From assembly GCA_004297825.1 (NCBI GenBank), contig SCSX01000084.1:42862-106861 (forward strand): a stretch of 64,000 nucleotides of DNA, read 5' to 3'. The stretch comes from Spirochaetota bacterium (lineage in GTDB: Bacteria > Spirochaetota > UBA4802 > UBA5368). A model generated the notes under the pieces. That model ran no database searches. It was not told the origin of the DNA and worked only from the letters and a program-made list of their open reading frames with translations. Positions within the stretch are counted from its first letter, which is position 1; each line of letters opens with the position of its first letter. Made by a program: the position numbers and the translations under genes. Positions 15,417 through 33,236 of the stretch are shown one piece after another.

Positions 15417-15426
15417 CTAGAAAGAC

Positions 15427-15495
15427 GTGTAAGAATTGGAGATGGGGAGAGGGATGAGATCGGGGGGATGTCAAGAATTTGATAATTTGGTAATT
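15427..15495 (+). repeat. Purine-rich ~65-bp intergenic element, copy A
   Basis: GTGTAAGAATTGGAGATGGGGAGAGGGATGAGATCGGGGGGATGTCAAGAATTTGATAATT. About 70% identical to the copy at 18725-18790, in the same orientation. Confidence 0.5.
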
Positions 15496-15535
15496 AAAAT
15501 CAGCCCCCGGAGCAATTCCGAGGGCTTTTATTAAT

Positions 15536-15937: not shown

Positions 15938-15939
15938 GG

Positions 15940-16236: not shown

Positions 16237-16276
16237 TTACAAGTACGTGTTTCAGACGCTAAATGTCAAACCAAAA

Positions 16277-16293
16277 GTTACCATAATGGTAAC
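16277..16293. promoter_or_regulatory. Perfect inverted repeat GTTACCAT-A-ATGGTAAC next to a TTGACA -35 box upstream of higB
   Basis: 8-bp perfect arms read directly from the DNA, about 40-55 bp upstream of the higB start codon. A typical position for a TA autoregulatory operator. Confidence 0.45.
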
Positions 16294-16435
16294 ATTGTAA
16301 TGCATGGTTTTAACCCCCCCTCCCCCGCTCCTTACACATTTATCTCCCACCATTGCCCCTGGAAATTTTTCCCCGGGGTTGACCGTTCCACCGGATTTCC
16401 GTACTTTTTTTAACTGTGCAAGGGGAGGGGAAACG

Positions 16436-16945: not shown

Positions 16946-16964
16946 TCCCTGGAGCCACGCGGGC

Positions 16965-18107: not shown

Positions 18108-18116
18108 CGTTCTCTC

Positions 18117-18680
18117 CTATGGCGTGTACAGGGTGACGATGAGTACGGTCTTCGCCTTCCCGGGGTTCCTGAGCGAGTGACGGACGCTGGAATCGAAATG
18201 GAGCGTAGTGTCCTTTTTGAGATGGTGCTCCTTCTGCCCCACCTTCACCATGACCTCGCCCTTGAGCACGTAGACGAACTCCTCGCCCTCGTGCTGGTAG
18301 CGCTGGCCCGGAAGCTCCGAGCGCGGGGGGATGGTCACGCGAAACGAGCGCAGATGGCCCTTCATCGCGTTAGGCGTGAGCACCTCGTACTCGTAGGCCT
18401 GCTCGCGGCTCTTGAAGCCGCGAATCCGGTCCTTCTCGCGCTCCCGGTCCTTGCCAGTGTCCTTTTTCAGGAGTTCGCCCGGGTCTATCGTGAGCGCCCG
18501 CGCGATTTTCAGGATATCGCCCACCGGGGCGAAATCGGTGCCGTCCTCGATCCGGGCGAGGTGCGCCTCGGCGAGCCCGGTTTTCGCGGCCAGTTCCCCG
18601 ATGCTCATCTTGAGCTTGCTGCGCCTGGTCTTGAGCGCGCGCGCAAGCGCGCCTCCGTGCGGTGCGGGTGTTGAATGCAT
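18117..18680 (-). CDS. XRE-family HTH transcriptional regulator with C-terminal cupin domain
   Basis: HTH (MSIGELAAKTGLAEAHLARIEDG) plus a cupin_2-like beta-barrel C-terminus (FVYVLKGEVMVKVG..HLKKDTTLHFDSSVRH). The start could be the internal MSIGE. Confidence 0.65.
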   Translation of the reverse strand: MHSTPAPHGGALARALKTRRSKLKMSIGELAAKTGLAEAHLARIEDGTDFAPVGDILKIARALTIDPGELLKKDTGKDREREKDRIRGFKSREQAYEYEVLTPNAMKGHLRSFRVTIPPRSELPGQRYQHEGEEFVYVLKGEVMVKVGQKEHHLKKDTTLHFDSSVRHSLRNPGKAKTVLIVTLYTP

Positions 18681-18724
18681 GCGTACCTCCGCGTTTTCTG
18701 TTTCAATATGGGTGCGAAAAAAAA

Positions 18725-18790
18725 GGTGTAAGAATGGGGGAGAGGGGGATGGGATGAGATTGAGGAGATATCAGAATTATTAATAGCTAA
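18725..18790 (+). repeat. Purine-rich ~65-bp intergenic element, copy B
   Basis: GGTGTAAGAATGGGGGAGAGGGGGATGGGATGAGATTGAGGAGATATCAGAATTATTAAT. Shares the GTGTAAGAAT, GGGGAGAGGG, GATGAGAT and TCA(A)GAATT blocks with copy A. Confidence 0.5.
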
Positions 18791-18982
18791 GGCGATAGAA
18801 TGTTTCCCCGGTCGCCGCTTCCCGATTCTTACGAAACGTTTCGCAATAAATTAGTTTGATGGTAAAATTATGCAAGCAATAAACTGATAGGGTTGTCGTG
18901 CGGGTTGCCTTGGGAACGGCGGCAGGATACCTTATTCAAGATGACGTCTCGATCAATACCGGGGAATGCGGGAGGGTGCACG

Positions 18983-19501
18983 ATGCGGAACATCACGCCA
19001 CATCTATGGTTCGACAAGGAGGCCGCGGAGGCGGCCGTGTTTTATTGTTCGGTTTTCTCAAATTCGAGGATTACGGGGATCACTACCATCCACGAGGTCC
19101 CGAGCCCCACGGGGGACAGCGATATCGTCTCGTTCGAGCTCAGGGGCCTGCCCTTCATGGCGATCAACGCCGGTCCCCTTTTCACCTTCAACCCCTCGGT
19201 GTCGTTTTTGGTGAATTACGACCCGTCGCGGGAACGCGAAGCCTCCGAAAATATCGATGCGGCGTGGGAAATGCTTTTACCGGGCGGGACGGTCCTCATG
19301 CCCCTGCAGGAGTACCCGTGGAGCAGGCGATACGGCTGGATAAAGGACAAATACGGGCTTTCCTGGCAGGTGACTCCCACCATCATGGCCGAAATGATGG
19401 CGAAGGGCACACCCGAACAGGTCGCCCGCGTCACCAGGGCGTTCCTTCCCATGAAGAAGTTCGATCTGGGCGCGCTGCAGAAGGCGTACGAAGGGCCGTG
19501 A
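18983..19501 (+). CDS. VOC-superfamily protein (PhnB-like), second paralog
   Basis: 172 aa. HLWFDKEAAEAAVFY.., KDKYGLSWQV. GGGAGGGTG RBS. Confidence 0.6.
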   Translation: MRNITPHLWFDKEAAEAAVFYCSVFSNSRITGITTIHEVPSPTGDSDIVSFELRGLPFMAINAGPLFTFNPSVSFLVNYDPSREREASENIDAAWEMLLPGGTVLMPLQEYPWSRRYGWIKDKYGLSWQVTPTIMAEMMAKGTPEQVARVTRAFLPMKKFDLGALQKAYEGP

Positions 19502-19510
19502 CCGGCGTTC

Positions 19511-19546
19511 CCCGTAGAGACGCGATTAATCGCGTCTCTACGGGGA
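19511..19546. repeat. Perfect 36-bp palindrome (16-bp arms, TTAA centre)
   Basis: CCCCGTAGAGACGCGA-TTAA-TCGCGTCTCTACGGGG, read directly from the DNA. It lies between the convergent VOC (+) and etfA (-) genes. Confidence 0.6.
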
Positions 19547-19606
19547 ATTCACACCGCGTCTCTACAGGGAATTCACGCCGCGTCCCCACAGGGAATTCAC
19601 ACCGCA
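19547..19606. repeat. About 2.5 tandem copies of a 24-bp unit (AATTCACRCCGCGTCYCYACAGGG)
   Basis: The right arm of the palindrome resembles the unit. Copies 1 and 2 are complete; copy 3 runs into the etfA stop codon. Confidence 0.5.
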
Positions 19607-20628
19607 CGCGTTTCTTTTTTCAAGCGGGCGGTGAACCGCTTGAGGAATTCACGCGCATCGTCCGTCACCACGTAGTCCGATATGCCGTTGATGGGCGCGG
19701 AGGCGTCGTTGTTGATCGATACGATTATCTCCGAATCTACAATGGACGCCGTGTGTTGTATCTGGCCCGATATCCCGAATCCCAGGTAGAGCCGCGGGCG
19801 TATGGTCTTTCCCGTCTGGCCGATCATGCGCTCCTCGCCGCACCACCGGTTGAATACCGGCACCCGCGTCGCGCCGACCTCGCCGCCCAGGACATCCGCG
19901 AGATCGAACAGGCAGTCGAAGCCCTTTTTCGTCCCCAAGCCGCGCCCGCCCGCGACGACGACCGGGGCCTGCTCCAGCGGAACGCGCGGCTTGTCCCAGC
20001 GTGTGGGATTTTCCAAATGCGTGATTTTATAGTTAGAGAGATCGTAGTCGAAGGGGACGCGCACGACCTCCGATTTATTGCCGGGGAGCTCTTTCTTGTC
20101 AAACACCCCCTGCTGGACGGTCGCCATTTGAGGGCGCGCGTGCGGGCAGATGACGGTCGCGATCGCGTTCCCGCTGTAGGCCGGGCGCTTCATCACGAGG
20201 AGCCCCTTCCCGTATTCGTCCGAGTCCATGATCGAGAGCCCCGTGCAGTGCGAGGTGAGCCCGGTGGAGAAGCGCTGCGCGAGACGGGGCGCGAGGTCCG
20301 TTCCCGCCTCCGTGGAGGGAAAGAGCATGATCGAAGGGGCGTGGGCGCGGATAAGCCTTTCGATCATGTCGGGGAATATGGCGCCGTCGTAATGCTTAAG
20401 GGCGCGGTCGCTCGCGCAAAAGATCGCGTCGGGACCGAACCTTTCGATTACGGGAAGGTACCGCTCGGCGTCGAGCGCGAAGACGAGCGCGCACAGCCGG
20501 GACCCGAGCGTATCGGCGAGCGCGCGGCCTATGGTCAACAGCTCGCAGGAGCCCTCCAGCACGCGCTCGTGGTCCTGGATCTCGGCGAACACCCAGACGT
20601 CTTTTCCGTTATGTGCCATTGGTTTCAA
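19597..20628 (-). CDS. etfA: Electron transfer flavoprotein alpha subunit
   Basis: 343 aa. FAD-binding C-terminal domain (VVAGGRGLG, PRLYLGFGISGQIQH). Confidence 0.85.
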   Translation of the reverse strand: MKPMAHNGKDVWVFAEIQDHERVLEGSCELLTIGRALADTLGSRLCALVFALDAERYLPVIERFGPDAIFCASDRALKHYDGAIFPDMIERLIRAHAPSIMLFPSTEAGTDLAPRLAQRFSTGLTSHCTGLSIMDSDEYGKGLLVMKRPAYSGNAIATVICPHARPQMATVQQGVFDKKELPGNKSEVVRVPFDYDLSNYKITHLENPTRWDKPRVPLEQAPVVVAGGRGLGTKKGFDCLFDLADVLGGEVGATRVPVFNRWCGEERMIGQTGKTIRPRLYLGFGISGQIQHTASIVDSEIIVSINNDASAPINGISDYVVTDDAREFLKRFTARLKKETRAV

Positions 20629-21416
20629 TTTCTCAGTAGATTGTGTTTTTTCAGTTTGTGTATCAGACCCTCGATCTTTTCGTCAAGGGTGCCCGGGAGC
20701 GCCTCGCGCCCGCGCGCGTGCGTGAAGAGCTCGGTGCCGATCACCATGGTGGGCGACCCCGCGGCCCCGTACTCGTCAGCGCTCCCGCCGATATCGGACA
20801 ACCCCATGACGGCGATCTCCCTGCCCGTGCAGTTCTTGAGGTCCGCGAGGCGCGGCGCGCGCACCCGGTTCGCGTTCCTGCCGGCCGATACGAGCAGGGG
20901 CAGGGCGACGCGTATCTTCTGGTATTCGTGCCCGTAGAGCCGCTCGACGATCGCGTGCCCGTCCTCGATCCGGATGTCGTGAACCTGCGTGACGTGCGGG
21001 ATGCCCAAAAATTCAGAGAGCTGGTAGCCCACGTGCGCCGTGTTGCCGTCGATCGCCTCGAAGCCGGTCACGACGACGTCGAACGCGCCGAGCTTCGTAA
21101 TGGCGCGCGCGAGTATCTTGCTCGTCACGAGCGAATCGGAACCGGCGAAACACGGACCGCTCACGAGCACGCAGCGGTCCACACCCAGGGCGTAGGCCTC
21201 CGCGAGCACGTCGGACGCCTGGGGTGGTCCCATGCTTATCGCCGTGACGCTCCCGCCGCACGCGTCGCGGAGGGCGAGCGCCGCCTCGATCGCGTGGAGA
21301 TCGTCGGGGTTCGTTATGTTCTCCGCGGACGCGCGGTCGAGCACGCCCGTCTTCGGATCGAAGGACGCGCGGTGCGTGTCGGGAACCTGTTTGATGCAGA
21401 CTATAATTGATAGCAT
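20625..21416 (-). CDS. etfB: Electron transfer flavoprotein beta subunit
   Basis: 263 aa, starting MLSIIVCIKQVPD (canonical EtfB N-terminus). The stop overlaps the etfA start (ATGA). Confidence 0.85.
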   Translation of the reverse strand: MLSIIVCIKQVPDTHRASFDPKTGVLDRASAENITNPDDLHAIEAALALRDACGGSVTAISMGPPQASDVLAEAYALGVDRCVLVSGPCFAGSDSLVTSKILARAITKLGAFDVVVTGFEAIDGNTAHVGYQLSEFLGIPHVTQVHDIRIEDGHAIVERLYGHEYQKIRVALPLLVSAGRNANRVRAPRLADLKNCTGREIAVMGLSDIGGSADEYGAAGSPTMVIGTELFTHARGREALPGTLDEKIEGLIHKLKKHNLLRN

Positions 21417-21427
21417 GGTGGCTGTTT

Positions 21428-22585
21428 TTAAATCTTCGAAAATTCCTTCACGATCGCGTTGCCGATTATGATTTTCATGACCTCGGAGGTGCCTTCGTAT
21501 ATCTGGGTAATCTTCGCGTCGCGGAAGAAGCGTTCCACCGGGAGGTCTTTTACATAGCCGTAGCCGCCAAACACCTGGAGCGCCTCGGTGCACGTGCGCA
21601 TGGCGACGCCCGACGCGTAGAGCTTGCACATGGCCGATTCCACGGAAAAGGGGAGCCCCTTGTCTTTTAAACATGCGGCGCGGTAGACGAGGAGCCGCGC
21701 CGCGTCGAGCTCCGTGCGCATCTCGGCGAGCTTGAATGAAATTCCCTGGAATGAACCGATAGGCCTTCCGAACTGGGCGCGCTCGGTCGCGTAGGTCGCG
21801 GCGGCCTCGTACGCCGCCATCCCGATCCCCAGCGCCTGCGCCGCAATACCGATGCGCCCGATGTCGAGCGTCTGCATCGAAATACTGAAACCGTCCTCGA
21901 CGCGGCCCAGTACGTTTTCTTTCGGGACGCGCACGTTGCTGAAAAAAAGCTCGGAGACCATGTTGCCGCGCATGCCCATCATGTCTTCGATTTTCCCCAC
22001 CTCGAAGCCGGGCATTGATTTCTCGACTATGAAGATGGCGATGCCGCCCGTCTTCTTTCCGGGGTCCACTGTCGCGCCCACGAGGAAGACCTCGCCGGTG
22101 CCGCCGTTGGTGACGAACGCCTTCTGGCCGTTCAGCACGTAGCCGTCCCCGTCGGGAACCGCGGTCGTACGGATGGAAGCGGCGTCGGAGCCCGCCTGCG
22201 GCTCGGTGATCGTGAAGCCGCCCAGTTTTTTCCCGCGGGCAAGATCCGGTGCGAGGCGCTCGACCTGTTCCGGCGTTCCGAATTTCAGTATCGGCGCGAG
22301 GCATACGGAGTTGTGCACGGTCACGCCCAGGCCCACGGCGGCGCTCACGCGCGAGAGCTCCTCGATTACGATCGCGTAGCTTACCGTGTCGAGGTCCGCG
22401 CCGCCGAACCTCTCCGGCGCCTGTATCCCCCACATGTTGAGGCGCCCCATCTCGCGCACGACCTCCGGGGGAAGCGGCTTCGAATCGCGGTCGAGCGTGT
22501 TCGCCCATTCGTCGAGCGTCCCGGTCGCGAACTTCCGCACACTCTTGCGGATCATGAGCTGGTGCCTGGCAAGGGTGAAATCCAT
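21428..22585 (-). CDS. Acyl-CoA dehydrogenase (short/butyryl-CoA DH-like), co-operonic with etfBA
   Basis: 385 aa from MDFTLARHQLMIRK. ACAD signatures GGFTITEPQAGSD, YGGYGY, IYEGTSEV. Forms an ACAD-etfB-etfA operon. Confidence 0.85.
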   Translation of the reverse strand: MDFTLARHQLMIRKSVRKFATGTLDEWANTLDRDSKPLPPEVVREMGRLNMWGIQAPERFGGADLDTVSYAIVIEELSRVSAAVGLGVTVHNSVCLAPILKFGTPEQVERLAPDLARGKKLGGFTITEPQAGSDAASIRTTAVPDGDGYVLNGQKAFVTNGGTGEVFLVGATVDPGKKTGGIAIFIVEKSMPGFEVGKIEDMMGMRGNMVSELFFSNVRVPKENVLGRVEDGFSISMQTLDIGRIGIAAQALGIGMAAYEAAATYATERAQFGRPIGSFQGISFKLAEMRTELDAARLLVYRAACLKDKGLPFSVESAMCKLYASGVAMRTCTEALQVFGGYGYVKDLPVERFFRDAKITQIYEGTSEVMKIIIGNAIVKEFSKI

Positions 22586-22821
22586 GACGATAGATATGAA
22601 GGAAGCGCGCCCGGGTCTGTCAAGCAATGAATTATTTTTTTGGGGTTGGGGGCCGATGCGCACTACGGCGGGGAAGAGCGCCTGGGGAAGGAGTGATGAC
22701 GACGAGGAGGACGGGTACCTGGCGGATCGATCATTTTAAAAAAGGGTTGTTTTATTAAGAGCAATATTAAAGTTTTGTACAATGGTGCAATCATAAAATC
22801 ACATATATAAGAGGTGTTGTC

Positions 22822-24228
22822 ATGAAAACGGCCCATGACTTTTTTCACTCTTACCTGTCCGAAAACATATCAGACGCCGACACCCTTGAGCGGATGCGCA
22901 ACGTCATCTCCGAATTCTCAACACGCGCCCCAAAAATCATCGTAATGAAATGTATCGACGGCCGGGTCCATGGGAGCAAGGCCAAGGGCTATCCCCCCAC
23001 CACCGTCCGGTTCGGGCGTACCGACGGCAACAAGGTATCGCTCGATATGAGCAATTTCTGGTACTGGAACCGTATTGACCGGGTCGTCAAGGACGCCCAC
23101 TTCAATACCCCGGAAACGCCGGCCCTCTTCATAGCCTTCATGCACCATTCACCGAAAGGCCACGGCTGCGCCTCGCATAACAGTGACGATGCAGCGGCCC
23201 TTGTATCGGTGGAAGAGCAGGTCGCGGCGGTCCGCAAAACATACAAAGAATCCGAGCTCTACGTCATGGGCGGCGATACCAACACCGACATCATGGCCGA
23301 AACGCTCATCTTTCCCGGCAGTTACCGTATCGATACGGAAAACATCATTCAGTACTGCAATTTAAAAAAACCGCGCGACGTGTTCCACGAGGCGTTCCTG
23401 AAAAACAAAATCGACGATGTCGCTACCTCAAGAAATGTGGACCACAAGACGCCGGATGATCTGCTTAACGGGATCAATCCGGAGTATTTCACAAACTTCC
23501 AGACCTGCCTCAACATGGAAAACTATCTTCTTCGCGAGATTACCACGATGCTCAACAAGGACCGGGGCGATCTCAAGCGGCTCATCCGACCGGACATCCT
23601 GGACTATATCTTCGTAACCCTTGATCGGGTCAAAATACCTAAAACGCTCGTCGGCCCCATCCTCTACCAGGTAATATGGAATATCACGTATGCCCTGTAC
23701 CAGATGAAGCTCGTAGACCACCTCTCGCCGGAAGAGCTGGAACGCCATCTCGATCATGCCGAGGAGCTGGTCTGCTACGGCGACGGGTTCGAGACGCTTC
23801 CGCGCAATAAGGCCGTGCTGGTCAAGACCGGACGGGGGGACGACGTCGATGCGCTTAATGTGTCGATGAATGTGCTTACGAAAAACCGCAAGCGTTATCA
23901 ACAGGACCACAAGCTCCTTGTGCATATAAACATCGAGGTGATGGGCGAGATGATGTCCTGGGACGATTTTAACGATAACGTCGGCTCCCGCATTCTTACC
24001 ATGCGACGGAACGTGGATTTTGTTTTCGGAAACGACGTGGCGATCCTCACATCGTATTCCTACCGCGATCAGAAGCGTTTTTACCCGGTCAAGATTTCCA
24101 AGGACGATGCCCGCATAGTGTACCCCGCGGACGTTATCTCGGAGATCAATTCCTCGCTCAAGTTCAGCAACATTTCGCTTAAGGCCCAGGAGGCCATCTA
24201 TAAAGCGAGTTTTATCGGTAAACTTTAA
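22822..24228 (+). CDS. Hypothetical 468-aa cytoplasmic protein, low-GC orphan
   Basis: No signal peptide or TM segment. Contains KIIVMKCIDGRVHG and FMHHSPKGHGCASH blocks. GC visibly lower (~50%) than both flanks. No family recognised. Confidence 0.5.
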   Translation: MKTAHDFFHSYLSENISDADTLERMRNVISEFSTRAPKIIVMKCIDGRVHGSKAKGYPPTTVRFGRTDGNKVSLDMSNFWYWNRIDRVVKDAHFNTPETPALFIAFMHHSPKGHGCASHNSDDAAALVSVEEQVAAVRKTYKESELYVMGGDTNTDIMAETLIFPGSYRIDTENIIQYCNLKKPRDVFHEAFLKNKIDDVATSRNVDHKTPDDLLNGINPEYFTNFQTCLNMENYLLREITTMLNKDRGDLKRLIRPDILDYIFVTLDRVKIPKTLVGPILYQVIWNITYALYQMKLVDHLSPEELERHLDHAEELVCYGDGFETLPRNKAVLVKTGRGDDVDALNVSMNVLTKNRKRYQQDHKLLVHINIEVMGEMMSWDDFNDNVGSRILTMRRNVDFVFGNDVAILTSYSYRDQKRFYPVKISKDDARIVYPADVISEINSSLKFSNISLKAQEAIYKASFIGKL

Positions 24229-24254
24229 TGCCTGTTGCCTCATGAATGCGGTTC

Positions 24255-24288
24255 GGCGGGAAGGGCGACGCACACCTCCCTTCCCGCT
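24255..24288. terminator. GC-rich hairpin (10-11 bp stem) between convergent genes
   Basis: GGCGGGAAGGG-12 nt-CCCTTCCCGCT. No U-tract, so at most a hairpin-type or bidirectional terminator. Confidence 0.3.
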
Positions 24289-24321
24289 GTGTGCCCGGGA
24301 GCAGCCGGGGTACGATCGTAG

Positions 24322-25077
24322 TTACCTTCCCATGAATTTTAAAAGTCCGTTCACCACCGTGAGCGGATGTACTGGACATCCGGGTATGTAGAGATCGATA
24401 TGGTGTTTATCCAGAAATTCGCGATTGAGCGCCGCCGATCCCTGGAATACGCCGCCGGATATCGCGCAACTCCCTGCGAGAATCACCACCTTCGGGTCCG
24501 GTGTGCACATATAGGCATCCTCCAGGGCCGGGGCCATGTTTTCCGAAATTGGTCCTGTGATCAGGATTCCGTCCGCGTGACGCGGAGAGGCTACGAATTC
24601 TATCCCAAAGCGTCCCATATCGAAGTTCGGATTGCCGCAGGCATTAAGCTCCCACTCGCACCCATTGCATCCGGCGGCGGATACCTGGCGAAGTTTGAAG
24701 GAGGCGCCAAACAGCCGTTTTATCTCCTGCCTCGCTTCGATGGCGCCGGAGAGGTACTCTTCCGCGTTTTTTGCGCCGTCCACCACCAGGTAATCCCTCG
24801 ACGTTGACGCGATCTTGTGAAAAGTCGAAAACGTGATCGATTTTTCCGGGCACTCCCGCGCGCAGTCGCCGCAGAAGACGCATTTCCCCAGGTCGATCGC
24901 AAGCGGCCGCGCCGAAATCGCCCCCACGGGGCAGACCTCACGGCACGCGTCACACCTGCCGCATTTCGATCCATCCACGGCGGGGAGCCCTCTGAAGGGA
25001 GGGCGTATCTCGGCCCTGGTCACGTCAGGAATCGCCTGTTCGCCCTGGTTTTTCCTTATTTTCAGCGTATTAATCAT
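24322..25077 (-). CDS. Fused 2x[4Fe-4S] ferredoxin (NuoI/HyfH-like) plus NuoB/HyfI-like small subunit
   Basis: Start MINTLKI (AAGGAG RBS overlapping the upstream stop). Two CxxCxxCxxxCP motifs (CGRCDACREVCP, CVFCGDCARECP), then a NuoB-like domain with the four cluster cysteines (GCNGC, GSCA, GCP). Confidence 0.8.
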   Translation of the reverse strand: MINTLKIRKNQGEQAIPDVTRAEIRPPFRGLPAVDGSKCGRCDACREVCPVGAISARPLAIDLGKCVFCGDCARECPEKSITFSTFHKIASTSRDYLVVDGAKNAEEYLSGAIEARQEIKRLFGASFKLRQVSAAGCNGCEWELNACGNPNFDMGRFGIEFVASPRHADGILITGPISENMAPALEDAYMCTPDPKVVILAGSCAISGGVFQGSAALNREFLDKHHIDLYIPGCPVHPLTVVNGLLKFMGR

Positions 25078-25087
25078 GGTGCGCTCC

Positions 25088-26578
25088 TTACAGGTCGTTG
25101 CCGCAATACGAAAGATTGAAGCTCTTATTACAGAGCGGAAAGTCGGAGATGCCATTCCCGCGCAGCGCATAGGCCAGCCCGTACCAGTTCTGCAGGGACG
25201 GGTCTTTTATCTTGTATCGGACGATCTTCCCCTTTTTCCCGGTTACGGCGCAGTGTACGATTTCGCCGCGCCATCCTTCCGTCATTGAAACGACCAGGCT
25301 GTCGGAGGGAAGTTTGTGAAGCGGCGAGATGAGCGGCTTATCGTCCGGAAGCCCGTCGAGCTGTTCAAAGATGAATTCGATCGATTGTTTTATCTCAATG
25401 TAGCGCATATAGGAGCGGGCGAAGACGTCGCCGCTGAGCATAGTGCGCTTGTGAACGGGATAAAACCGATATATGCCAAAGGGATGATCGGCCCGCACGT
25501 CGAGTGACACGCCAGAGGCGCGTCCCGCGGGTCCTACAAGGCCCATTTTCGTAGCGGCCTCAAAATCAACCGTACCGGTATGGTCCAGGCGAGAGAGAAC
25601 GCTCGCCATCTCGAACATCGCCTCACCCATGAGCTCCACGTCCCTGGAAACCTTGGTGAGTTTTTCCTTGAATTCCCTGACGTGATCCGGCTTAAAATCG
25701 AAGGCGACGCCGCCCTCGCGCACGAGTCCCCTGCCGAAGCGGCTTCCCGTGAGGCTAAGGAGGGTGTTGATCACCAGGGTGCGGGTTACGCCGAAGACCG
25801 CATTACCCAGCAGATAGGCGACGTCGTTCGCGATCGCGCCGAGGTCCCCAATGTGGATGGCCGCGCGCTCCATTTCCAGCGCAATGGCGCGGATCGCCTG
25901 CGCCCGCCGGCTTATCTCAACGTTCGACAGCGCTTCAATGGCGTCCGCGTACGCGGTGGCGTGACCGATCACCGTATCTCCCGCGATCGACTCCGCGAGA
26001 TGGATGCCCGACCGGTCATAACGCTCGACCATGAGGCGTTCCACACCGCGGTGCTGGTAACCGAGCTGTATCTCGAGATGGTGCACGTCCTCACCCTGGC
26101 ACATGAAACGGAAATGCCCGGGCTCGATCACACCCGCATGCACGGGACCCACGGCTACCTCGTGCACCTCCTCTCCCTTCATGGTGAAGAACGGATAACT
26201 CTCCATCGTTTTCTCATGGTCGGCGCGGTCATGCCCGTAGCGCACCCCCTTGAGCCAGGGATGCCCCTCCGGCGTTATGCCCGTGTCCTCGTAGAACTCC
26301 CGCTCGAAGATATGGAAACGCGGCGCCTCGGGGGTAATTGCCTGGTAACGGCGTTCCCTGCCCATCGCGCCGGATGATATATAAAGCCGGTTTGCTTCGT
26401 CGTCGGCGAGTACCGCGTACACTGTCTCCGTCCTGCCGTTCGGCATTCCAAAGAATGCGACGACCCTTCTGCCCTCGCGGCATCGCCCGACGATCTGGGC
26501 GCGAAGTTCGTCCATTGTCATTTCCGGAATGTCGGCCAGCCTTACAGGCCGATTATTTTTCGTATATATCCATTTCAT
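25088..26578 (-). CDS. Fused NuoC-NuoD / HycE-HyfG-like 'large subunit' lacking NiFe-binding cysteines
   Basis: 496 aa. NuoC-like N-terminal part, then a NuoD/hydrogenase large-subunit fold (HFRF, LGYQHRGVE). Only 5 Cys in total and no CxxC pair. The position matching the N-terminal R-x-C-G-x-C-x-x-x-H block reads ESIAGDTVIGHATAY. The C-terminus is ..LCNKSFNLSYCGNDL, with no DPCxxC. Confidence 0.75.
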   Translation of the reverse strand: MKWIYTKNNRPVRLADIPEMTMDELRAQIVGRCREGRRVVAFFGMPNGRTETVYAVLADDEANRLYISSGAMGRERRYQAITPEAPRFHIFEREFYEDTGITPEGHPWLKGVRYGHDRADHEKTMESYPFFTMKGEEVHEVAVGPVHAGVIEPGHFRFMCQGEDVHHLEIQLGYQHRGVERLMVERYDRSGIHLAESIAGDTVIGHATAYADAIEALSNVEISRRAQAIRAIALEMERAAIHIGDLGAIANDVAYLLGNAVFGVTRTLVINTLLSLTGSRFGRGLVREGGVAFDFKPDHVREFKEKLTKVSRDVELMGEAMFEMASVLSRLDHTGTVDFEAATKMGLVGPAGRASGVSLDVRADHPFGIYRFYPVHKRTMLSGDVFARSYMRYIEIKQSIEFIFEQLDGLPDDKPLISPLHKLPSDSLVVSMTEGWRGEIVHCAVTGKKGKIVRYKIKDPSLQNWYGLAYALRGNGISDFPLCNKSFNLSYCGNDL

Positions 26579-26596
26579 GATTTTACAATCCCCCTG

Positions 26597-28003
26597 TTAA
26601 AGTAACGCCGCGGCTTTCTGGAAAAGGGCCTGCACGAAGAATGGCATGGACACGCCCATGGAGAGCAGAAGCGCAAGGAAGGCGAACTGCGGCAGGTATG
26701 AAAGCACCCCCGCGCCGTGCGCCGCCGGGCCGTCGGTGGAGGCGCCAAAGCTCATCCGCAGCACCGCTTTGCCGATTCCTGCCATGTTGATCGTCAGTAA
26801 AAGGAGAAAGAGGACCATGTGGACGAACATCCCCGCGTCAAACATCGACTTCGCCGCAAGGAACTCGCTCAGGAATATGGGAAACGGCGGGATGCCCACG
26901 ATGCCGGCGAAGCAAAGCATCCAGAGCCACCCCGTTGCGGGTTCGGACCGGAGCAGTCCCCGTACGTCCTCGATCTGCTTGGATTTAAAGCGGTGCAGGA
27001 TATTCCCCGAGGTGAGAAAGAAAGCCGCCTTGGTCAGCGAGTGCGCCGCCAGGTGGAGCATGGCGGCGAAAAGGCCCGCCCCGCCGACCCCGAGGCAAAT
27101 GGCGATGATCCCCATGTTCTCGATGGAAGAATAGGCGAGCATTCGCTTGTAGTTTTTGATATTGATGATGTATACCGCGGAAACGAAAATCGAGATGAAG
27201 CCGATCACGAGCAGAAGGTTGTCTGCATACCATCGCATTCCCGCCAGACTCATGAGCTTGTTAATACGCGCGATACCCAATAATGCCGCATTGAGAAGCG
27301 TCCCCGAGAGGAGTGCCGAAACCGGCGAGGGCGACTCCGAGTGTGCGTCGGGCAGCCAGGCGTGCACGGGGGCGAAACCCACCTTGGTGCCGAACCCCAC
27401 GAGCATTAATGGAAAGGATAGCTTCAGCCAGTAGGGGGTAATATTCCGCGCTCCCGCGTAAAGGTCGTCAAAGAAAAGAGAGCCCGAATCTCCCAGCCCC
27501 ATCGAAAGGACGATGATGCCGACGAATGCCAGGGCGATTCCGATCGAACAAATAAACAGGTATTTCCAGGTCGCCTCGAGCGAGGCCTCCGAATGGCTGA
27601 AATAAATAAGATACGAGCTCGAAAGCGTCGTGGCCTCAACGAAGACCCAGAGGAGCGCGAGGTGCGTGGAAAGAATCACCCCGGTCATGGAGGCGACGAA
27701 AACCAGGATATTCGCGGTAAAAAGCGACTGGCTCTTGGCCGGGGCTTCATTGTTTTTCAGGTAGTCGACAAGAAATACCGCCACCCCGAGGAAGACGACG
27801 GCCAGGACAAGAAGAAAAAGTACGTTAAGATCGTCGATTCTGAAATACGGGGTGAACGATGCCGGGTTGAAATACAACAAAATAGAGACAGCCATGAATG
27901 CCGCCGCATAGGACACCGTCACGATGATATTCAGCGCCTTGTTCCTCACAACGAGAACTACTATAGAAAGCGCTATCGGGAGAAATAGTAAAGTTTCTAT
28001 CAT
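26597..28003 (-). CDS. NuoN/HyfF-like antiporter-type membrane subunit
   Basis: 468 aa, polytopic. Mrp/complex-I antiporter-like signature (FGTKVGFAPVHAWLPDAH). Confidence 0.75.
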   Translation of the reverse strand: MIETLLFLPIALSIVVLVVRNKALNIIVTVSYAAAFMAVSILLYFNPASFTPYFRIDDLNVLFLLVLAVVFLGVAVFLVDYLKNNEAPAKSQSLFTANILVFVASMTGVILSTHLALLWVFVEATTLSSSYLIYFSHSEASLEATWKYLFICSIGIALAFVGIIVLSMGLGDSGSLFFDDLYAGARNITPYWLKLSFPLMLVGFGTKVGFAPVHAWLPDAHSESPSPVSALLSGTLLNAALLGIARINKLMSLAGMRWYADNLLLVIGFISIFVSAVYIINIKNYKRMLAYSSIENMGIIAICLGVGGAGLFAAMLHLAAHSLTKAAFFLTSGNILHRFKSKQIEDVRGLLRSEPATGWLWMLCFAGIVGIPPFPIFLSEFLAAKSMFDAGMFVHMVLFLLLLTINMAGIGKAVLRMSFGASTDGPAAHGAGVLSYLPQFAFLALLLSMGVSMPFFVQALFQKAAALL

Positions 28004-28007
28004 GGCC

Positions 28008-28643
28008 TTAATCCTTTAATTTCGCGAGCGTGTTGATGTGGGTGTCGGAGTACGAATCCTGCACTTTATTGATGAATAGCCCGAGCAGGTACACGGCGAT
28101 AAAGATGTCCAGGAGCACGCCCATCGCGACGATGAAGGGCATTTCGCGCGCAATGGAAAGCGCCAGGAGAAAAATGCCGTTTTCGAGCATCATGTATCCC
28201 ATTACGTGGGTAATGATTTTTTTGCGCGAGATAATTATGAACAGTCCCGTTACAATAGTGGAGATGGAAATGCCGAAGTAGAAGGGTCTGATATTACTTA
28301 CCGTCCCCGCGGACCAGTAGGCGATGTAGAAACCGGCAGCGAAAATCGCGGTCGTGATCGCGAGGGATGAATGATTTGTTACATAGGGATCAATCTCGCG
28401 GTAGATGCCGTTTTTGCGGATTACATACATGAGAAAGATCGGAATCGCTATGGCCTTGACGACGAGCGTTTCAAATGAAAGGAATATCAGGTTCGGAAGG
28501 TTGGTCGTTCCGTAATCGAACAATACCAGGAGAAACAGGATTACCCCCTGTGCCGCTATCGCCTTGACATAGCTTTCAATGCGCGTGGTGACTGAAACGT
28601 ACAACATGGTGAGTCCGAAAAGTATTATTATGAATTGGATCAT
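28008..28643 (-). CDS. HyfE-like small membrane subunit
   Basis: 212 aa from MIQFIIILF. About 6 TM helices. Size and operon position match HyfE. Confidence 0.55.
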   Translation of the reverse strand: MIQFIIILFGLTMLYVSVTTRIESYVKAIAAQGVILFLLVLFDYGTTNLPNLIFLSFETLVVKAIAIPIFLMYVIRKNGIYREIDPYVTNHSSLAITTAIFAAGFYIAYWSAGTVSNIRPFYFGISISTIVTGLFIIISRKKIITHVMGYMMLENGIFLLALSIAREMPFIVAMGVLLDIFIAVYLLGLFINKVQDSYSDTHINTLAKLKD

Positions 28644-29560
28644 TTGATGCCTCCCGCAATAAAAAGCACAACGGTTGAAATGATGATGGCCGAAATCGCG
28701 GTCATGAAGAGGAGAAACTGCGGCACATGCGTCATGCGCAACCGCGCTGTGACCGATTCGATGGTACCGATGACGACGGCCAGGAGCGCCTGTACGGCGA
28801 TCATTAGGCCCAGGGAAGCCCACAGGGGAAAGGCTGCCGGGATTACGAGGTTCGCAATGAGGGCGCCTATGACGACCATCTTCATGCCCGCCGCGTACAT
28901 GATGAATCCCATGTCGGGGCCGGAATTGTCGAGGACCATCACCTCGTGTATCATAGTGAGTTCAAGGTGGGTATTCGGGTCGTCCACGGGCACGCGGCAT
29001 CCCTCCGCAAGGAGCATGATGAAAAGTGCGATGATCCCCAGTGGCAATACGAGTATGGCCACATCGCCCCCCTTGGCGATTTCGAATATTCGTTCGAATG
29101 ACAATCCCCCGGATATGAGGCCCAGCGAGGCGATGATGATGAAAAATGCCGGCTCCACCAGCGCGGCAAAAGTCACCTCGCGGCTTGCCCCCATTCCCTC
29201 GAAACTCGAACCGGTATCCAGCGCGCCTACGACGGTAAAGAATCTCCCAATCCCGAGAACATATGCGAAGAGGATAAAATCCGCCTCGAAGGATATGACC
29301 GATTTCCCTCCCGCCAGCGGCGCGATGAGCCCAGCCGTAATGACGGCGGCGAACGTTACCGACGGGGCCAGGCGAAAGACGAAGGATGAAGTAGAGCTTA
29401 TCACTTCACCCTTTTTCATGAGCTTCATGAAGTCCCTGAAAGGCTGCATGATAGACGGGCCCTTCCGCCCTGCCCAGCGGGACTTTATTCGATTTATAAA
29501 CCCAAGAAATAAAAAGGGCATTATAAGAAGCAATGCTATGTTAATGATCGTTATCATCAT
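28640..29560 (-). CDS. NuoH/HycD/HyfC-like membrane subunit
   Basis: About 306 aa from MMITIINIALL. NuoH-type loop motif (RIKSRWAGRKGPSIMQPFRDFMKL). Confidence 0.75.
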   Translation of the reverse strand: MMITIINIALLLIMPFLFLGFINRIKSRWAGRKGPSIMQPFRDFMKLMKKGEVISSTSSFVFRLAPSVTFAAVITAGLIAPLAGGKSVISFEADFILFAYVLGIGRFFTVVGALDTGSSFEGMGASREVTFAALVEPAFFIIIASLGLISGGLSFERIFEIAKGGDVAILVLPLGIIALFIMLLAEGCRVPVDDPNTHLELTMIHEVMVLDNSGPDMGFIMYAAGMKMVVIGALIANLVIPAAFPLWASLGLMIAVQALLAVVIGTIESVTARLRMTHVPQFLLFMTAISAIIISTVVLFIAGGIK

Positions 29561-29561
29561 T

Positions 29562-31553
29562 TCAGACCACCATGATCCAGAGAGTAATCGAGATGAGGAA
29601 TACCAGGCCGTACAGGATGTACTGCTGGGTACTCCCGCTTTGAATCCAGGTAAAGGCATTCATGGACCGTTCGATCATCGAAAGGACGGGGTTGATGATT
29701 CCCCGCTCAAAGCGATCCTCCGCGTGGCTTTCAAAACCGGCTTCCCCGGGAAATAGTCCCTGCGGTTTCGTAAAGTGTATCTTCCAGGAAAAGAGCGGGC
29801 GGAAAATTCTTAAGAACGGCGCTGCGTAGGAAGAGGCGGTATACTGCATCCGTACGTTTCCGGCCTGGTATCCGCAGTCCCATGTTTTATACGTGTAGAC
29901 GCTCCGCTTTCTAAGAAGCAGGGCTCTCAAGAAAAAGATTGCGGCGAAGAGGCCTATGAAGACTGCCAGCCCTTTCGAAACGCCTCCGAGGGTTATAAGA
30001 TAGGGTGATGTGTCCAACGCTTTACCGCCTTCAGGCATAAGCTGCTGCGCCACGAGGGCGACGCCGGACAGGGCGTATTGCGGAAGAACGCCGATCAGGA
30101 CGATCAGCCCCATCTGGATGGCCATGGCGGCCTTCATCGAAAAAGAAACCTCGACCGGAGCTTCATGATACTCGCTTCGGGGGCTTCCCAGGAATACGAC
30201 GCCAAAGACCTTGGTGAAGCACAACAACGCCATGGCGCCGATAAACGCAAGGGACGCGAATGAGAAAACCATTGCGATTGAAAGCAGGGTGTTCCCGGCT
30301 GTGAGACCTTTCAACATCCCCCAGTAAATAAAAAACTCGCTCACGAAGCCGTTGAATGGCGGGAGCCCGCAAATAGCGATCGAACCCACCAGGAAGGCTG
30401 TGGCCGTAAATGCCATGAACTTAACGATGCCGCCCAGCTTTTCGATATCGAGGAGGTGCGTTTTTTGATACACCCCGCCAGTGGCGAAAAAGAGCAGCGA
30501 CTTGAAAATCGAATGGTTGAGCACGTGCAATATCCCGCCGGAATATCCGAGAAGCGCGAGCGGGACGTTCCCGTAAGCGGTTCCCAGCATGCCCAGTCCG
30601 ATGCCAATCCCGATGATACCGATGTTTTCAACGCTGTGATAGGCCAGGAGCCGCTTGATGTTGTGCTGGGCGATGGCGTAGGCGACGCCAAGGATGCCCG
30701 ATATCACCGAAATGATCAGGACGAAATAGGCGATTTCGAAGGCCGGCGTCTGTATCAGAAGCACGGTCCGGAGAATCCCGTATATCCCGGTTTTGATCAT
30801 AATTCCCGACATGAGGCCGGAAATGTGGCTCGGTGCGGCGGGATGCGCCTTGGGAAGCCAGGTATGAAAGGGGACGAAACCCGCCTTCGTGCCGAAGCCT
30901 ATGAACAAGAGCACGAAGACCAGGCTCGCCAGCCCGCGGTGCTCCTGGAATACGGTGGTGAATGAAGCAAAATCGAAACTGCCCGATTGAAACGCGGCGG
31001 CGAGGAACCCGACCATGAGGAAAAGAACCCCGATATGCATGGCGATCAGGTAGTTGATCGAAGCCTGATACACCTCCTCGCTCTCGTTTTCAAACGCCAC
31101 GAGAAAGAAAGAAGAAAGCGACATGATCTCCCAGGCGATGAGGAAGGCAACCGCGTTCTGAAGGGCGATTACGGAAAGCATCGAGGCGATAAGGGCGGCA
31201 AGGAAGAAGAAGTGCGATGTTGTTCCGTTCTTTTTCCCATAGTACGGCTTCATATACCCGATTGCGTATACCGTTCCCAGGAAGCTGATCCCGGCGATGA
31301 CAAGGGAAAAAAAAGCTGCGAGCTTATCGATCACCAGTCTTACCGTGCCGGTGGGGTACGAAAGGACATATGCCGCCGTGATCGGACTTTCCTCGAAAAG
31401 CGCGTTAAGCGAAACCCATGCGATCAGCGCCGCGCCGCAGCCGGTTCCCAAAGCCACGGCCCAGCTCTTCAGCCGCTCGGGGAGAACCATGGAAACGAGG
31501 CCCCCGGCAAGTATAATGCCGATACCGGCTATGAACAGGTCCATCATCTCCAT
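29562..31553 (-). CDS. NuoL/HyfB/HycC-like antiporter-type membrane subunit
   Basis: 663 aa, polytopic. Antiporter-module signature (GFGTKAGFVPFHTWLPKAH). Confidence 0.8.
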   Translation of the reverse strand: MEMMDLFIAGIGIILAGGLVSMVLPERLKSWAVALGTGCGAALIAWVSLNALFEESPITAAYVLSYPTGTVRLVIDKLAAFFSLVIAGISFLGTVYAIGYMKPYYGKKNGTTSHFFFLAALIASMLSVIALQNAVAFLIAWEIMSLSSFFLVAFENESEEVYQASINYLIAMHIGVLFLMVGFLAAAFQSGSFDFASFTTVFQEHRGLASLVFVLLFIGFGTKAGFVPFHTWLPKAHPAAPSHISGLMSGIMIKTGIYGILRTVLLIQTPAFEIAYFVLIISVISGILGVAYAIAQHNIKRLLAYHSVENIGIIGIGIGLGMLGTAYGNVPLALLGYSGGILHVLNHSIFKSLLFFATGGVYQKTHLLDIEKLGGIVKFMAFTATAFLVGSIAICGLPPFNGFVSEFFIYWGMLKGLTAGNTLLSIAMVFSFASLAFIGAMALLCFTKVFGVVFLGSPRSEYHEAPVEVSFSMKAAMAIQMGLIVLIGVLPQYALSGVALVAQQLMPEGGKALDTSPYLITLGGVSKGLAVFIGLFAAIFFLRALLLRKRSVYTYKTWDCGYQAGNVRMQYTASSYAAPFLRIFRPLFSWKIHFTKPQGLFPGEAGFESHAEDRFERGIINPVLSMIERSMNAFTWIQSGSTQQYILYGLVFLISITLWIMVV

Positions 31554-31556
31554 GGC

Positions 31557-32231
31557 TTACCTCTCCCTCCATTCCTTTTCAGCCCGTTCTATATAGTAGA
31601 GAACCACCTCTTTCTTCGGGCGATCCCGAAGCGTTTTCAGAAAATCTTCCTGCTTGCAGAGAAAAGAAATCTTCGACAGGATTTCCAGGTGCCGTTTCGC
31701 GTTAGACGAAATAATGATGAAAAGAGCCTGCACCGGCTCGCCGTCCAGGGCCCTGTAGTCGACGGGGTTTTTCAAAAAACATATGGACACGGATTCGTCG
31801 TCGATGTCCGATATAATCGGATTGCGCGGATGCGGTAGGGCGATCCCCTTGCCCACGGCGGTCGTCATCATTTCTTCCCGCTGAAGAAGCGACGCGAGCA
31901 CCGTGTCCTTGTCAATGCTTTTCGGCAGGGGGATCGTATTTACTACGCCGTCGATCACCCCCCGAACCGTTGCTCCCTCGATGCCGTAATGGATATCGCC
32001 CCGCTTGATGAGGTCGATAAGGGACACCGGCCTTGTCGTCAGGGTGAGGTCCAGTATCTTTTCGGATACGGCAATGTCGTTTCTCAAGATCCATTCGTTC
32101 ACTTCCGCCTTGTTAAAGAAGTACTGGTTTTTGATCTTGTACGACGGCATCTTTTTCTCGTTGATCCACTGCAGAATGGTCTTCTCCGGCACGTCGAACA
32201 GGTCGACGACGTCCTTCATTTTTAAATCCAT
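31557..32231 (-). CDS. Transcriptional regulator: N-terminal excisionase/MerR-type HTH fused to a PTS EIIA type-2 (EIIA-Ntr/fructose) domain
   Basis: 224 aa. HTH (VPEKTILQWINEKKMPSYKI). EIIA-2 domain with a candidate phospho-His in GKGIALPHPRNP. Ends 3 nt before the NuoL-like gene. GAGGAG RBS. Confidence 0.65.
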   Translation of the reverse strand: MDLKMKDVVDLFDVPEKTILQWINEKKMPSYKIKNQYFFNKAEVNEWILRNDIAVSEKILDLTLTTRPVSLIDLIKRGDIHYGIEGATVRGVIDGVVNTIPLPKSIDKDTVLASLLQREEMMTTAVGKGIALPHPRNPIISDIDDESVSICFLKNPVDYRALDGEPVQALFIIISSNAKRHLEILSKISFLCKQEDFLKTLRDRPKKEVVLYYIERAEKEWRER

Positions 32232-32252
32232 CGTGCTCCTCTTCTCGAATCG

Positions 32253-32591
32253 TTATTGCTTATTTTTAATGATGTCTTTGAATGGAATAATCTTCCGATA
32301 TTCCTCTTCATTGTTTTTCTTAGCTTCCCAAAGCGAGATGTCCGACTGCATCCCCAGCCAATATTCCACGGTGGTGTCAAAAAACCGCGCGAGCCTGATT
32401 GCCGTATCGTGAGTGATGGCCCGTTTTCCCAGGACCACCTCGTTGATACGCACTCTCGTTATTCCCAGGTGGTCGGCGAGATCCTGCTGGGTGATCCCCA
32501 GCGGCTCAAGGTATACTGACTTTAATACTTCGCCCGGATGCCGCGGGCGCCGGTCATTGCCGGAATCCTGGTTTTCCCTGTTTTTTTTCAT
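32253..32591 (-). CDS. higA: HigA-family addiction-module antidote protein (VapI-type XRE HTH)
   Basis: 112 aa. HPGEVLKSVYLEPLGITQQDLADHLGITRVRINEVVLGKRAITHDTAIRLARFF..WLGMQ is a close match to the HigA/VapI antidote family. Confidence 0.75.
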   Translation of the reverse strand: MKKNRENQDSGNDRRPRHPGEVLKSVYLEPLGITQQDLADHLGITRVRINEVVLGKRAITHDTAIRLARFFDTTVEYWLGMQSDISLWEAKKNNEEEYRKIIPFKDIIKNKQ

Positions 32592-32679
32592 CCACTCCCC
32601 GCGCGATCAATTTTGAGCGAGAATGTGCGGACATGTATCGAGCAACGTTGCATATTGCAAGCAAAATATAATGGCCCTC

Positions 32680-32883
32680 TTAGGGAATAATCCGGCGGAA
32701 ATGAAACGCAATTAGTGCTTGATGGCCGGCGGGAGCGAATTTATAGTTCGATAAAAGGAGAACGTGGATGCTAGTAAACCTGCGAATACCTGCATCGCTG
32801 ATGCCTTTTCTTTCCATGATTTTGAGCGGGCGCTTTTTTCTGAAAGATGCCATGAATTCATAAACACCAATGGAGCCTGTCAA
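32680..32883 (-). pseudogene. Degenerate higB-like ('plasmid maintenance system killer') toxin remnant
   Basis: The first ~40 aa (MASFRKKRPLKIMERKGISDAGI..) match the killer-protein family N-terminus. The ORF is only 57-67 aa versus ~92, and the central/C-terminal core is missing or scrambled. Confidence 0.4.
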
Positions 32884-33170
32884 TGAAAAAAAATGCCGTG
32901 GATGCTTCCCTTACCATCGAGGAGAAGGCCCTGCTTTCCGCAATAGTTAAGAACAAGTACGAGGGCGGCAATAATTACCCGCGCGCCGCATGGGTCGAAA
33001 TAATCTGCCCGGACAGAAAAGGCAAGGCCGTGCTGAGAGGCCTCTGCGAAAAGGGACTGGCTGAGACCGGCATGGGTGGCACGGTGGCGGGCGACTTCTA
33101 TACCGCCTGCTGGCTGACCGGCGAGGGAGAAGCAGTCTATCGCGGTCTTGAACGTGAAACAGCCGACTAA
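32883..33170 (+). CDS. Hypothetical protein (95 aa)
   Basis: ORF with a start-to-start overlap with the higB remnant. No recognisable domain. Confidence 0.35.
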   Translation: MKKNAVDASLTIEEKALLSAIVKNKYEGGNNYPRAAWVEIICPDRKGKAVLRGLCEKGLAETGMGGTVAGDFYTACWLTGEGEAVYRGLERETAD

Positions 33171-33236
33171 AAATATCTTGCAGATGAATCAACATCGAAT
33201 AGAATGCAGATATTCTAACCGGAAAGGAGAATTCAA

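Follow-up and report, generated by a model that had tools for sequence, protein, structure and literature searches.

What does the homologue of a hydrogenase catalytic subunit do once every cysteine ligand of its NiFe centre has been replaced? This question is raised by the gene at 25088-26578 (minus strand) of a 64,000-nucleotide stretch of a Spirochaetota genome (contig SCSX01000084.1), called the window hereafter, which encodes a NuoC-NuoD/HycE-like large subunit of 496 amino acids (aa). From the comparisons described below, this protein is almost certainly the large subunit, EhrL, of an Ehr (energy-converting or Ech-hydrogenase-related) complex. The cysteine loss is an already published, defining trait of Ehr, which the initial annotation of the window had not recognised, and the window adds no new kind of system. 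For the locus as a whole, an Ehr complex that would work by redox-coupled ion translocation is the best explanation, with a probability of roughly 55%. The identity as Ehr follows because the ligands are replaced, HycE is the best match, the membrane subunits match the Hyf B, E and F models and the composition matches the published one.

The EhrL translation contains five cysteines (positions 33, 160, 443, 483 and 492) and no CxxC pair, as had been noted before. Pfam assigned residues 47-110 to Complex1_30kDa (NuoC) and residues 265-414 to Complex1_49kDa (NuoD). A phmmer search against all PDB chains revealed E. coli HycE as the best match (7z0s_E, E 1.4e-50), followed by MbhL (6cfw_L, 4e-39) and T. 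thermophilus Nqo4 (6e-29); the match to MbsL was much weaker than that to HycE (E 2e-18 vs 1e-50). In the alignment with HycE, 'DRVCGICGFAHSTAY' pairs with EhrL 'ESIAGDTVIGHATAY', which puts Ala199 and Thr202 at the positions of the first and second ligand cysteine, and '..SLDPCY(SCTDR)' pairs with EhrL 'SFNLSYCGNDL', which puts Ser490 and Gly493 at those of the third and fourth. The N-terminal NiFe motif (RxCGxCxxxH) corresponds to ESIAGDTVIGH (EhrL residues 196-206; 25961-25993, minus strand) and the C-terminal one (DPCxxCxxR) to NKSFNLSYCGNDL (residues 484-496; 25091-25129, minus strand). Neither the L1 (C[GS][ILV]C..H) nor the L2 ([DE][PL]CxxC) motif of functional group 4 [NiFe]-hydrogenases is found in EhrL. 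The initial annotation had aligned the N-terminal motif by hand, reading its cysteines as Ala and Thr, and had seen no D-P-C-x-x-C at the C-terminus; the phmmer alignment agrees on both, finds no cysteine at any of the four positions that a manual alignment could have misplaced, and supports its conclusion that there is no NiFe site.

EhrL also has no C-terminal extension for processing by a HycI-type maturation endopeptidase, and its last residue aligns with what we take to be the C-terminus of mature, processed HycE (cleavage after Arg537). An AlphaFold2 model of the monomer (predicted local distance difference test 84, predicted template-modelling score 0.88), in which residues 131-161 and 492-496, both interface elements, are of low confidence, found HycE (7z0s_E) as its best PDB match in Foldseek, with a template-modelling score of 0.85; E. 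coli NuoCD came next, and complex I chains scored about 0.8. In GenBank the protein is TAL31060.1 from a Spirochaetes metagenome-assembled genome, annotated just as 'hydrogenase'.

EhrL thus combines homology to group-4 large subunits and NuoD with the absence of both Ni/Fe-ligating CxxC motifs, the combination by which Ehr is recognised. A connection to published Ehr sequences is given by OGH98787.1 (P0108; Margulisbacteria GWD2_39_127), a protein with 56% identity to EhrL across the full query (100%) that appears in the group-4/Ehr tree, name-list and alignment files of PMC6349859. In that study the Melainabacteria Ehr group together with sequences of Riflemargulisbacteria, Lentisphaerae and Spirochaetes. 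Judged by the similarity to OGH98787.1 and by this placement of Spirochaetes, EhrL is predicted to fall within the published Ehr clade. Supplementary Note 4 of PMC6349859 lists the components of Ehr as HyfB, HyfF, NuoH, HyfE, a NuoD gene also encoding NuoC and a NuoB gene also encoding NuoI. The window encodes the same set (HyfB-, NuoH-, HyfE- and HyfF-like subunits, a NuoC-NuoD fusion and a NuoI-NuoB fusion), and the published large subunits likewise lack the NiFe cysteines; we see no essential difference, and the window system is a member of this family. Missing NiFe ligands define Ehr in PMC10284858 (2023), PMC10432482 (2023) and PMC12342949 (2025), and PMC4758237 cites Marreiros et al. 2013 (BBA), the defining Ehr review. 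Other published occurrences include Saganbacteria, Melainabacteria, Nitrospira, ammonia-oxidising archaea and sister lineages of Cyanobacteria. Ehr has been discussed as linking hydrogenases and complex I in evolution, and at least 600 stretches in species-representative genomes from many phyla contain it.

The conservation of the replaced site was analysed in two sets. The first comprised 118 full-length EhrL homologues from databases (55-100% identity); the second came from the scan of species-representative genomes that matched the above-mentioned stretches, of which 80 species-level loci were kept (42-83% identity; labelled with L numbers below). These loci cover Spirochaetota, Melainabacteria, Bacteroidota, Ignavibacteriota, Planctomycetota, Verrucomicrobiota, Gemmatimonadota, Acidobacteriota, Omnitrophota, Lentisphaerota, Desulfobacterota, Myxococcota and others. 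At the four ligand positions a cysteine occurs in none of the 118 database homologues, and E196, G200, D201, S490, Y491, G493, D495 and L496 are invariant in all of them. In the 80 species-level loci most of these residues, including G200, D201, S490 and G493, deviate no more than once. A total of 70 EhrL residues reach this level of conservation in the latter set, among them the loop between strands β1 and β2, GP[VI]HAG[VI]IEPGHFRF, and most of the C-terminal NKSFNLSY-x-G-x-DL; the loop occurs in just five sequence variants among 82 sequences from many phyla. The replacement motifs E-x-x-x-G-D and NKSFNLSY-x-G-x-DL are common to about 200 homologues from at least 15 phyla. The former cysteine positions hold small residues (Ala, Thr/Ser, Ser and Gly) amid invariant carboxylates, and the invariant polar residues of the pocket are Glu152, Glu196, Asp201, Asp252, Tyr491 and Asp495. 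Two residues near the site are more variable: position 492 carries Ala or Ser instead of Cys in roughly 15-20% of the species-level loci, and His206 falls short of strict invariance.

The recurrence of these substitutions, near-invariant in about 200 homologues across phyla, marks the ligand replacements as a selected state and not as chance decay. Together with the intact reading frames, it rules out that the cysteines are missing owing to sequencing error, pseudogene formation or recoding. Going by the sequence comparisons, Ehr is a descendant of Hyf/Hyc-type group-4 [NiFe]-hydrogenases whose NiFe site has been irreversibly lost, and therefore would neither produce nor oxidise H2 at a NiFe centre.

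The gene for EhrL is the fifth of six structural genes in a minus-strand operon with the order A-B-C-D-L-S, whose open reading frames (ORFs) are intact and overlap or nearly abut; this order recurs in most of the 80 loci. EhrA (29562-31553, minus strand) is a HyfB/NuoL-like antiporter-type subunit (NCBIfam hydrogenase 4 subunit B, E 9e-168; Pfam Proton_antipo_M and Proton_antipo_N). EhrB (28640-29560, minus strand) is a HycD/MbhM/NuoH-like membrane subunit that anchors the peripheral arm (Pfam NADHdh, E 7e-33). EhrC (28008-28643, minus strand, start refined) is HyfE-like and related to NuoK (NCBIfam hydrogenase 4 membrane subunit E, 2e-18), and EhrD (26597-28003, minus strand) is an antiporter-type subunit similar to HyfF and NuoN (Pfam Proton_antipo_M, E 1e-54; NCBIfam hydrogenase 4 subunit F). 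MbhL, MbhJ, MbhM and MbhH rank first or second among the PDB matches for EhrL, EhrS, EhrB and EhrD, respectively. For EhrB, HycD and MbhM are the best PDB matches with E 1e-21, while ND1/NuoH reaches only 6e-9; EhrB retains the acidic loop motifs 'VEP' and 'LAEGCRVPVDDPNTHLEL' that HycD and complex I ND1 share. An alignment of EhrD with MbhH showed retention of charged residues that line up with conserved ones of MbhH, namely Glu in 'FVEAT', Lys in 'GTKVGFAPVH' and Glu in 'LSEFL'. We take these to be the charged residues of transmembrane helices 5, 7 and 12.

EhrS (24322-25077, minus strand, 251 aa) is a fusion of a NuoI-like ferredoxin domain with two [4Fe-4S] clusters and a NuoB/HycG-like small subunit. 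Its likely start is the ATG at 25077, which lies behind an AAGGAG Shine-Dalgarno sequence; the longer ORF starting at 25170 is disfavoured. The ferredoxin domain contains CxxCxxCxxxCP twice, and the four cysteines of CNGC...GSC...PGC, which follow the CxxC...C...C pattern of the hydrogenase type, match those that ligate the proximal cluster in MbhJ and HycG, so that all 12 iron-sulfur (FeS) cysteines are present. Both cysteine sets had been reported in the initial annotation, as had the conclusion that electrons can reach the subunit interface, and these points stand; the electron-input chain of this protein is complete. A scan of 24000-33200 found promoter-like sites in the number expected from shuffled sequence and terminator-like sites in excess of expectation, none of the latter at an operon boundary. 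Two variations of the gene order were seen elsewhere. About 2 kb of additional sequence, probably a second antiporter-like paralogue, lies between the best EhrA match and EhrB in L018, L023, L026, L061, L064, L066 and L075. In L074 the membrane genes follow ehrL-ehrS rather than precede it, and the arrangement of L054 also differs.

Directly upstream of the operon, a gene at 31557-32231 (minus strand) encodes a helix-turn-helix (HTH) domain fused to a domain resembling enzyme IIA(Ntr) of the phosphotransferase system (PTS) (Pfam HTH_17 and PTS_EIIA_2, E 1e-25; best PDB hit PtsN). Its stop codon ends 3 nucleotides before the ehrA start (TAA GCC ATG), and it is probably co-transcribed with ehrA. 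The gene holds this position in 34 of 52 loci with enough flanking sequence, in at least 10 phyla; the loci of Melainabacteria, Riflebacteria and Prolixibacteraceae lack it. Of 43 orthologues, at least 37, 43 and 42 keep Arg118, His134 and His181, respectively, with a spacing that fits the active-site Arg, phospho-His and His of EIIA(Mtl/Ntr). The protein is likely a putative PTS-responsive regulator or accessory protein. Beyond it, no gene family is conserved within 10 kb on either side of Ehr in the 80 loci.

The relation of Ehr to characterised complexes was compared at the level of subunits and motifs. E. coli formate hydrogenlyase/hydrogenase 4 (HycE/HyfG, group 4a, 7z0s) is closest: it shares the NuoC-NuoD fusion, the best match in sequence and structure, the β1-β2 loop signature EPGHFR, Hyf-like membrane subunits and a small subunit of the CxxC type. 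Ehr differs from it in the replacement of the four NiFe cysteines, in the lack of a C-terminal extension, in the fusion of the HycF-like ferredoxin to the small subunit, and in that neither an FdhH/HycB partner nor hyp genes are found nearby. The Q-module of complex I (NuoCD/Nqo4, NuoB and NuoH) resembles Ehr in being NiFe-less, in common ancestry and fold, in an FeS chain to the interface and in antiporter-like subunits, but the quinone ligands Tyr87 and His38 are absent from EhrL, there is no NuoEFG input module and the small-subunit cysteines are of the hydrogenase type. Only six structural genes make up the operon, and no separate NuoA or NuoJ homologue was identified among them, so that neither the NuoEFG N-module nor the NuoA/NuoJ pair of complex I is represented. 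P. furiosus MBH (6cfw) and MBS/Mbx (6u8y) are also group-4-type complexes that are linked to ferredoxin and contain Mrp-like modules. MBS/Mbx, a further relative devoid of NiFe, uses a different acceptor. MBH keeps the NiFe cysteines, and MBH and MBS consist of 13-14 subunits with a full Mrp module, compared with six in Ehr. Mbx is mentioned as a hydrogenase-related complex in PMC6349859 as well.

For the Ehr complex of this spirochaete we tentatively propose redox-coupled ion translocation, at somewhat lower confidence than the explanation as a whole. A low-potential donor, for example reduced ferredoxin, would pass electrons to the NuoI-like 2x[4Fe-4S] domain of EhrS and on to the proximal [4Fe-4S] cluster. 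Resulting changes of charge or protonation at the remodelled polar pocket (Glu152, Glu196, Asp201, Asp252, Tyr491 and Asp495) would be relayed by the near-invariant β1-β2 loop to EhrB as well as to the two antiporter-like subunits, which would move H+ or Na+. This mechanism is favoured by the presence of all 12 FeS cysteines here and in the majority of family members. The retained charged residues of EhrD, the acidic loops of EhrB, the invariant β1-β2 loop of EhrL with Glu152, and the invariant Asp252 would fit it as well. Further points in its favour are the ferredoxin-linked fermentative genes in the flanks of the window (acyl-CoA dehydrogenases with EtfAB, and 2-hydroxyacyl-CoA dehydratase) and the higher abundance of Ehr subunits on formate in Geobacter (ehr cluster GSU0739-0745 in Geobacter sulfurreducens).

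Several observations weigh against redox-coupled translocation. PMC10284858 (2023), PMC10432482 (2023) and PMC12342949 (2025) all call the function of Ehr unknown, and the literature searched contained nothing relevant on a biochemical function or a structure of any Ehr. No electron acceptor site is identifiable, and no partner oxidoreductase is conserved within 10 kb on either side in the 80 loci. A formate dehydrogenase has been proposed as the partner of the Margulisbacteria Ehr; neither the window operon nor the 80 loci have one within 10 kb. A supercomplex of formate dehydrogenase and Ehr was rejected, as neither an FdhA- nor a NuoE/F-like gene is conserved over this distance in the 80 loci and none occurs among the larger annotated ORFs of the window. 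Lastly, some relatives have lost the proximal-cluster ligands of EhrS while their EhrL pocket is unchanged, which suggests that the core function conserved in Ehr may do without electrons reaching the pocket; electron delivery to the pocket would hence not be universally required.

These losses affect the proximal [4Fe-4S] cluster in 8 of about 72 species from three phyla, with an EhrL pocket that is invariant in all of them. Five of the loci belong to Bacteroidales/Prolixibacteraceae, two to Planctomycetota (L061 and L039) and one to Opitutae (L059). In the Bacteroidales/Prolixibacteraceae proteins, GGDNS[CYT]E...GTDAISGG...PGNP replaces GGCNGCE...GSCAISGG...PGCP, which amounts to three or four replaced proximal ligands (e.g. 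C/C/C/C to D/C/D/N), and only one ferredoxin-domain cluster is kept. L061, L039 and L059 have lost two or three proximal ligands and keep all eight cysteines of the ferredoxin domain. The ferredoxin domain itself is eroded in other lineages: Melainabacteria and some others have lost cluster A, Gemmatimonadota cluster B and Omnitrophota both, again with an invariant EhrL pocket. Among 120 representatives of clusters at 50% identity, 94 keep the four proximal cysteines and at least 9 have lost three or more ligands, in most cases to Asp or Glu; fragments or alignment errors may account for part of the single-site differences seen in this set. The loci with losses named above were checked by eye. 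EhrS sequences with replaced ligands are otherwise highly conserved, and the substitutes are usually Asp, Glu or Asn. The orthologues with replaced proximal ligands are those of L048, L065, L069, L076, L077, L059, L061 and L039; they lie at about 11.4-12.6 kb in most of these loci and elsewhere in L059 and L076. The searchable literature contained no mention of FeS-ligand erosion in Ehr or of its linkage to the HTH-EIIA gene.

The erosion is the reason to consider that Ehr is an Mrp-like cation/proton translocator, in which the EhrL/EhrS arm serves as a non-redox (or redox-sensing) gate for protons, cations or a ligand, the FeS clusters are structural or a redox sensor only, and control comes from PTS(Ntr) through the HTH-EIIA protein. 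This is the main alternative, and we regard it as rather unlikely. Proximal-cluster ligands have been lost in three phyla, and at least 9 of the 120 clusters have at least three of them replaced. Because different lineages keep different single clusters of the ferredoxin domain, the electron wire would be broken in at least one lineage, and still the EhrL pocket stays invariant, as do the β1-β2 loop and the membrane arm. The small residues ringed by invariant carboxylates at the former cysteine positions, the lack of an oxidoreductase partner conserved nearby in the 80 loci, and a PtsN-like EIIA fused to an HTH domain as the sole conserved accessory gene would all suit such a gate. On the other hand, the full set of 12 FeS cysteines is retained in most lineages, that of the window included, and this speaks for selection on the clusters; the FeS-poor clades could have diverged in function. 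We also know of no member of the complex I/group-4 superfamily with a peripheral arm that works without redox chemistry. If the gate were real, Ehr would be the first peripheral-arm member of complex I and the group-4 hydrogenases that works without electron transfer. The invariant polar pocket, the missing complex I quinone ligands, the repeated FeS loss and the HTH-EIIA gene offer handles for experiments.

A second alternative is that Ehr is a complex-I-like reductase of quinone (or a methanophenazine-like compound), in which the proximal cluster reduces a membrane quinone at the EhrL/EhrS/EhrB interface. The initial annotation had favoured a quinone-like or other substrate pocket as in complex I and had pointed to the Tyr/His equivalents of NuoD as the residues to inspect. 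The phmmer alignment of EhrL with Nqo4 is ungapped over residues 24-126, and the positions were read off directly. Both quinone ligands are absent: Tyr87 of Nqo4 corresponds to Gly200 of EhrL, which is invariant, and His38 to Ile151 next to Glu152, both invariant. The N2-associated His169 corresponds to Gly282. Asp139 of Nqo4 is matched by the invariant Asp252, which is also Asp in MbhL. The β1-β2 loop (GPVHAGVIEPGHFRF; EhrL residues 144-158; 26105-26149, minus strand) is of the hydrogenase type, equals that of HycE (DEPGHFRL) in length and signature, and keeps Glu152, which aligns with MbhL Glu21. We take the latter to be the conserved proton-transfer glutamate of hydrogenases.

The EhrL pocket is, to judge from these alignments, a remodelled hydrogenase site and not a quinone site of the complex I type. 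The earlier proposal of such a quinone pocket is not supported, because the loop and the CxxC of EhrS are those of hydrogenases, the quinone ligands are absent and relatives have lost the proximal cluster. A quinone reductase would gain from the intact electron chain to the interface in EhrS of the window, from the NuoH-like subunit with its retained acidic loop motif and from the precedent of complex I, itself a NiFe-less relative. Many of the hosts (Planctomycetota, Verrucomicrobiota, Gemmatimonadota and Bacteroidota) are respiratory bacteria, which presumably make menaquinone in general. Against it stand the residues at all three Nqo4 positions, Tyr87, His38 and His169, the hydrogenase-type loop and small-subunit cysteine pattern, the far better fit of EhrB to HycD/MbhM than to ND1/NuoH, and the clades without a proximal cluster. 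Moreover, Riflemargulisbacteria encode Ehr in genomes where a full quinone biosynthesis pathway was not identified (PMC6349859). Taken together, quinone reduction appears improbable.

The idea that EhrL is a cryptic hydrogenase with a different metal site, for which Cys492 beside the position of the fourth ligand and the nearby carboxylates and His206 could be cited, or part of a decaying pseudo-operon, can be dismissed as highly improbable: neither Cys492 (Ala or Ser in part of the loci) nor His206 is fixed, no hyp, hycI or other maturation genes occur among the larger annotated ORFs of the window, H2 does not induce Ehr expression in Nitrospira moscoviensis (PMC12342949), and the 70 near-invariant residues across phyla together with the intact, tightly packed ORFs exclude decay.

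The surroundings of the operon were also surveyed. The larger annotated ORFs of the 64-kb window include no genes for formate dehydrogenase, NuoEF or quinone biosynthesis, nor any hyp or hycI genes. A gene at 22822-24228 (plus strand), convergent with the Ehr operon, encodes a 468-aa protein that resembles the catalytic domain of CsoSCA, the carbonic anhydrase of the carboxysome shell. Both matches are of low significance (Pfam PF20686, E 7e-4, which misses the cut-off; PDB 2fgy_A, E 0.003). The alignment pairs 'CIDGR' with 'CADGR' and 'HHSPKGHGCASH' with 'HFS..PTHSGCAAH', segments which we take to be the Zn-ligand and Asp-Arg motifs of CsoSCA. No carboxysome genes were found among the annotated ORFs of the window. 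As a partner of Ehr this candidate was rejected, since it adjoins Ehr in 2 of 81 loci only, the window and its closest relative L001.

The flanks at 1539-7607 and 13400-22663 encode enzymes of anaerobic acyl-CoA metabolism, namely two subunits of 2-hydroxyacyl-CoA dehydratase (HGD-D), two acyl-CoA synthetases, a thiolase, two acyl-CoA dehydrogenases and EtfA/EtfB. They are potential producers or users of reduced ferredoxin; their linkage is not conserved in other Ehr loci. ORF lengths in the window are not reliable at face value owing to the high G+C content. The long ORFs at 13434-15416 (plus strand), 18898-20937 (plus strand) and 20625-22508 (minus strand) have Arg/Gly-rich N-terminal parts that are high-G+C artefacts; they over-extend real genes (the thiolase, from about 14238, and EtfB) or lie antisense. 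At 15536-16236 (minus strand), a small HTH gene (XRE/HigA-like) follows a 98-aa ORF, which by eye has the look of a HigB/HigA-type toxin-antitoxin pair. Another small HTH gene (Pfam HTH_3) at 32253-32591 lies on the same minus strand as the HTH-EIIA gene and ends 21 nucleotides upstream of it.

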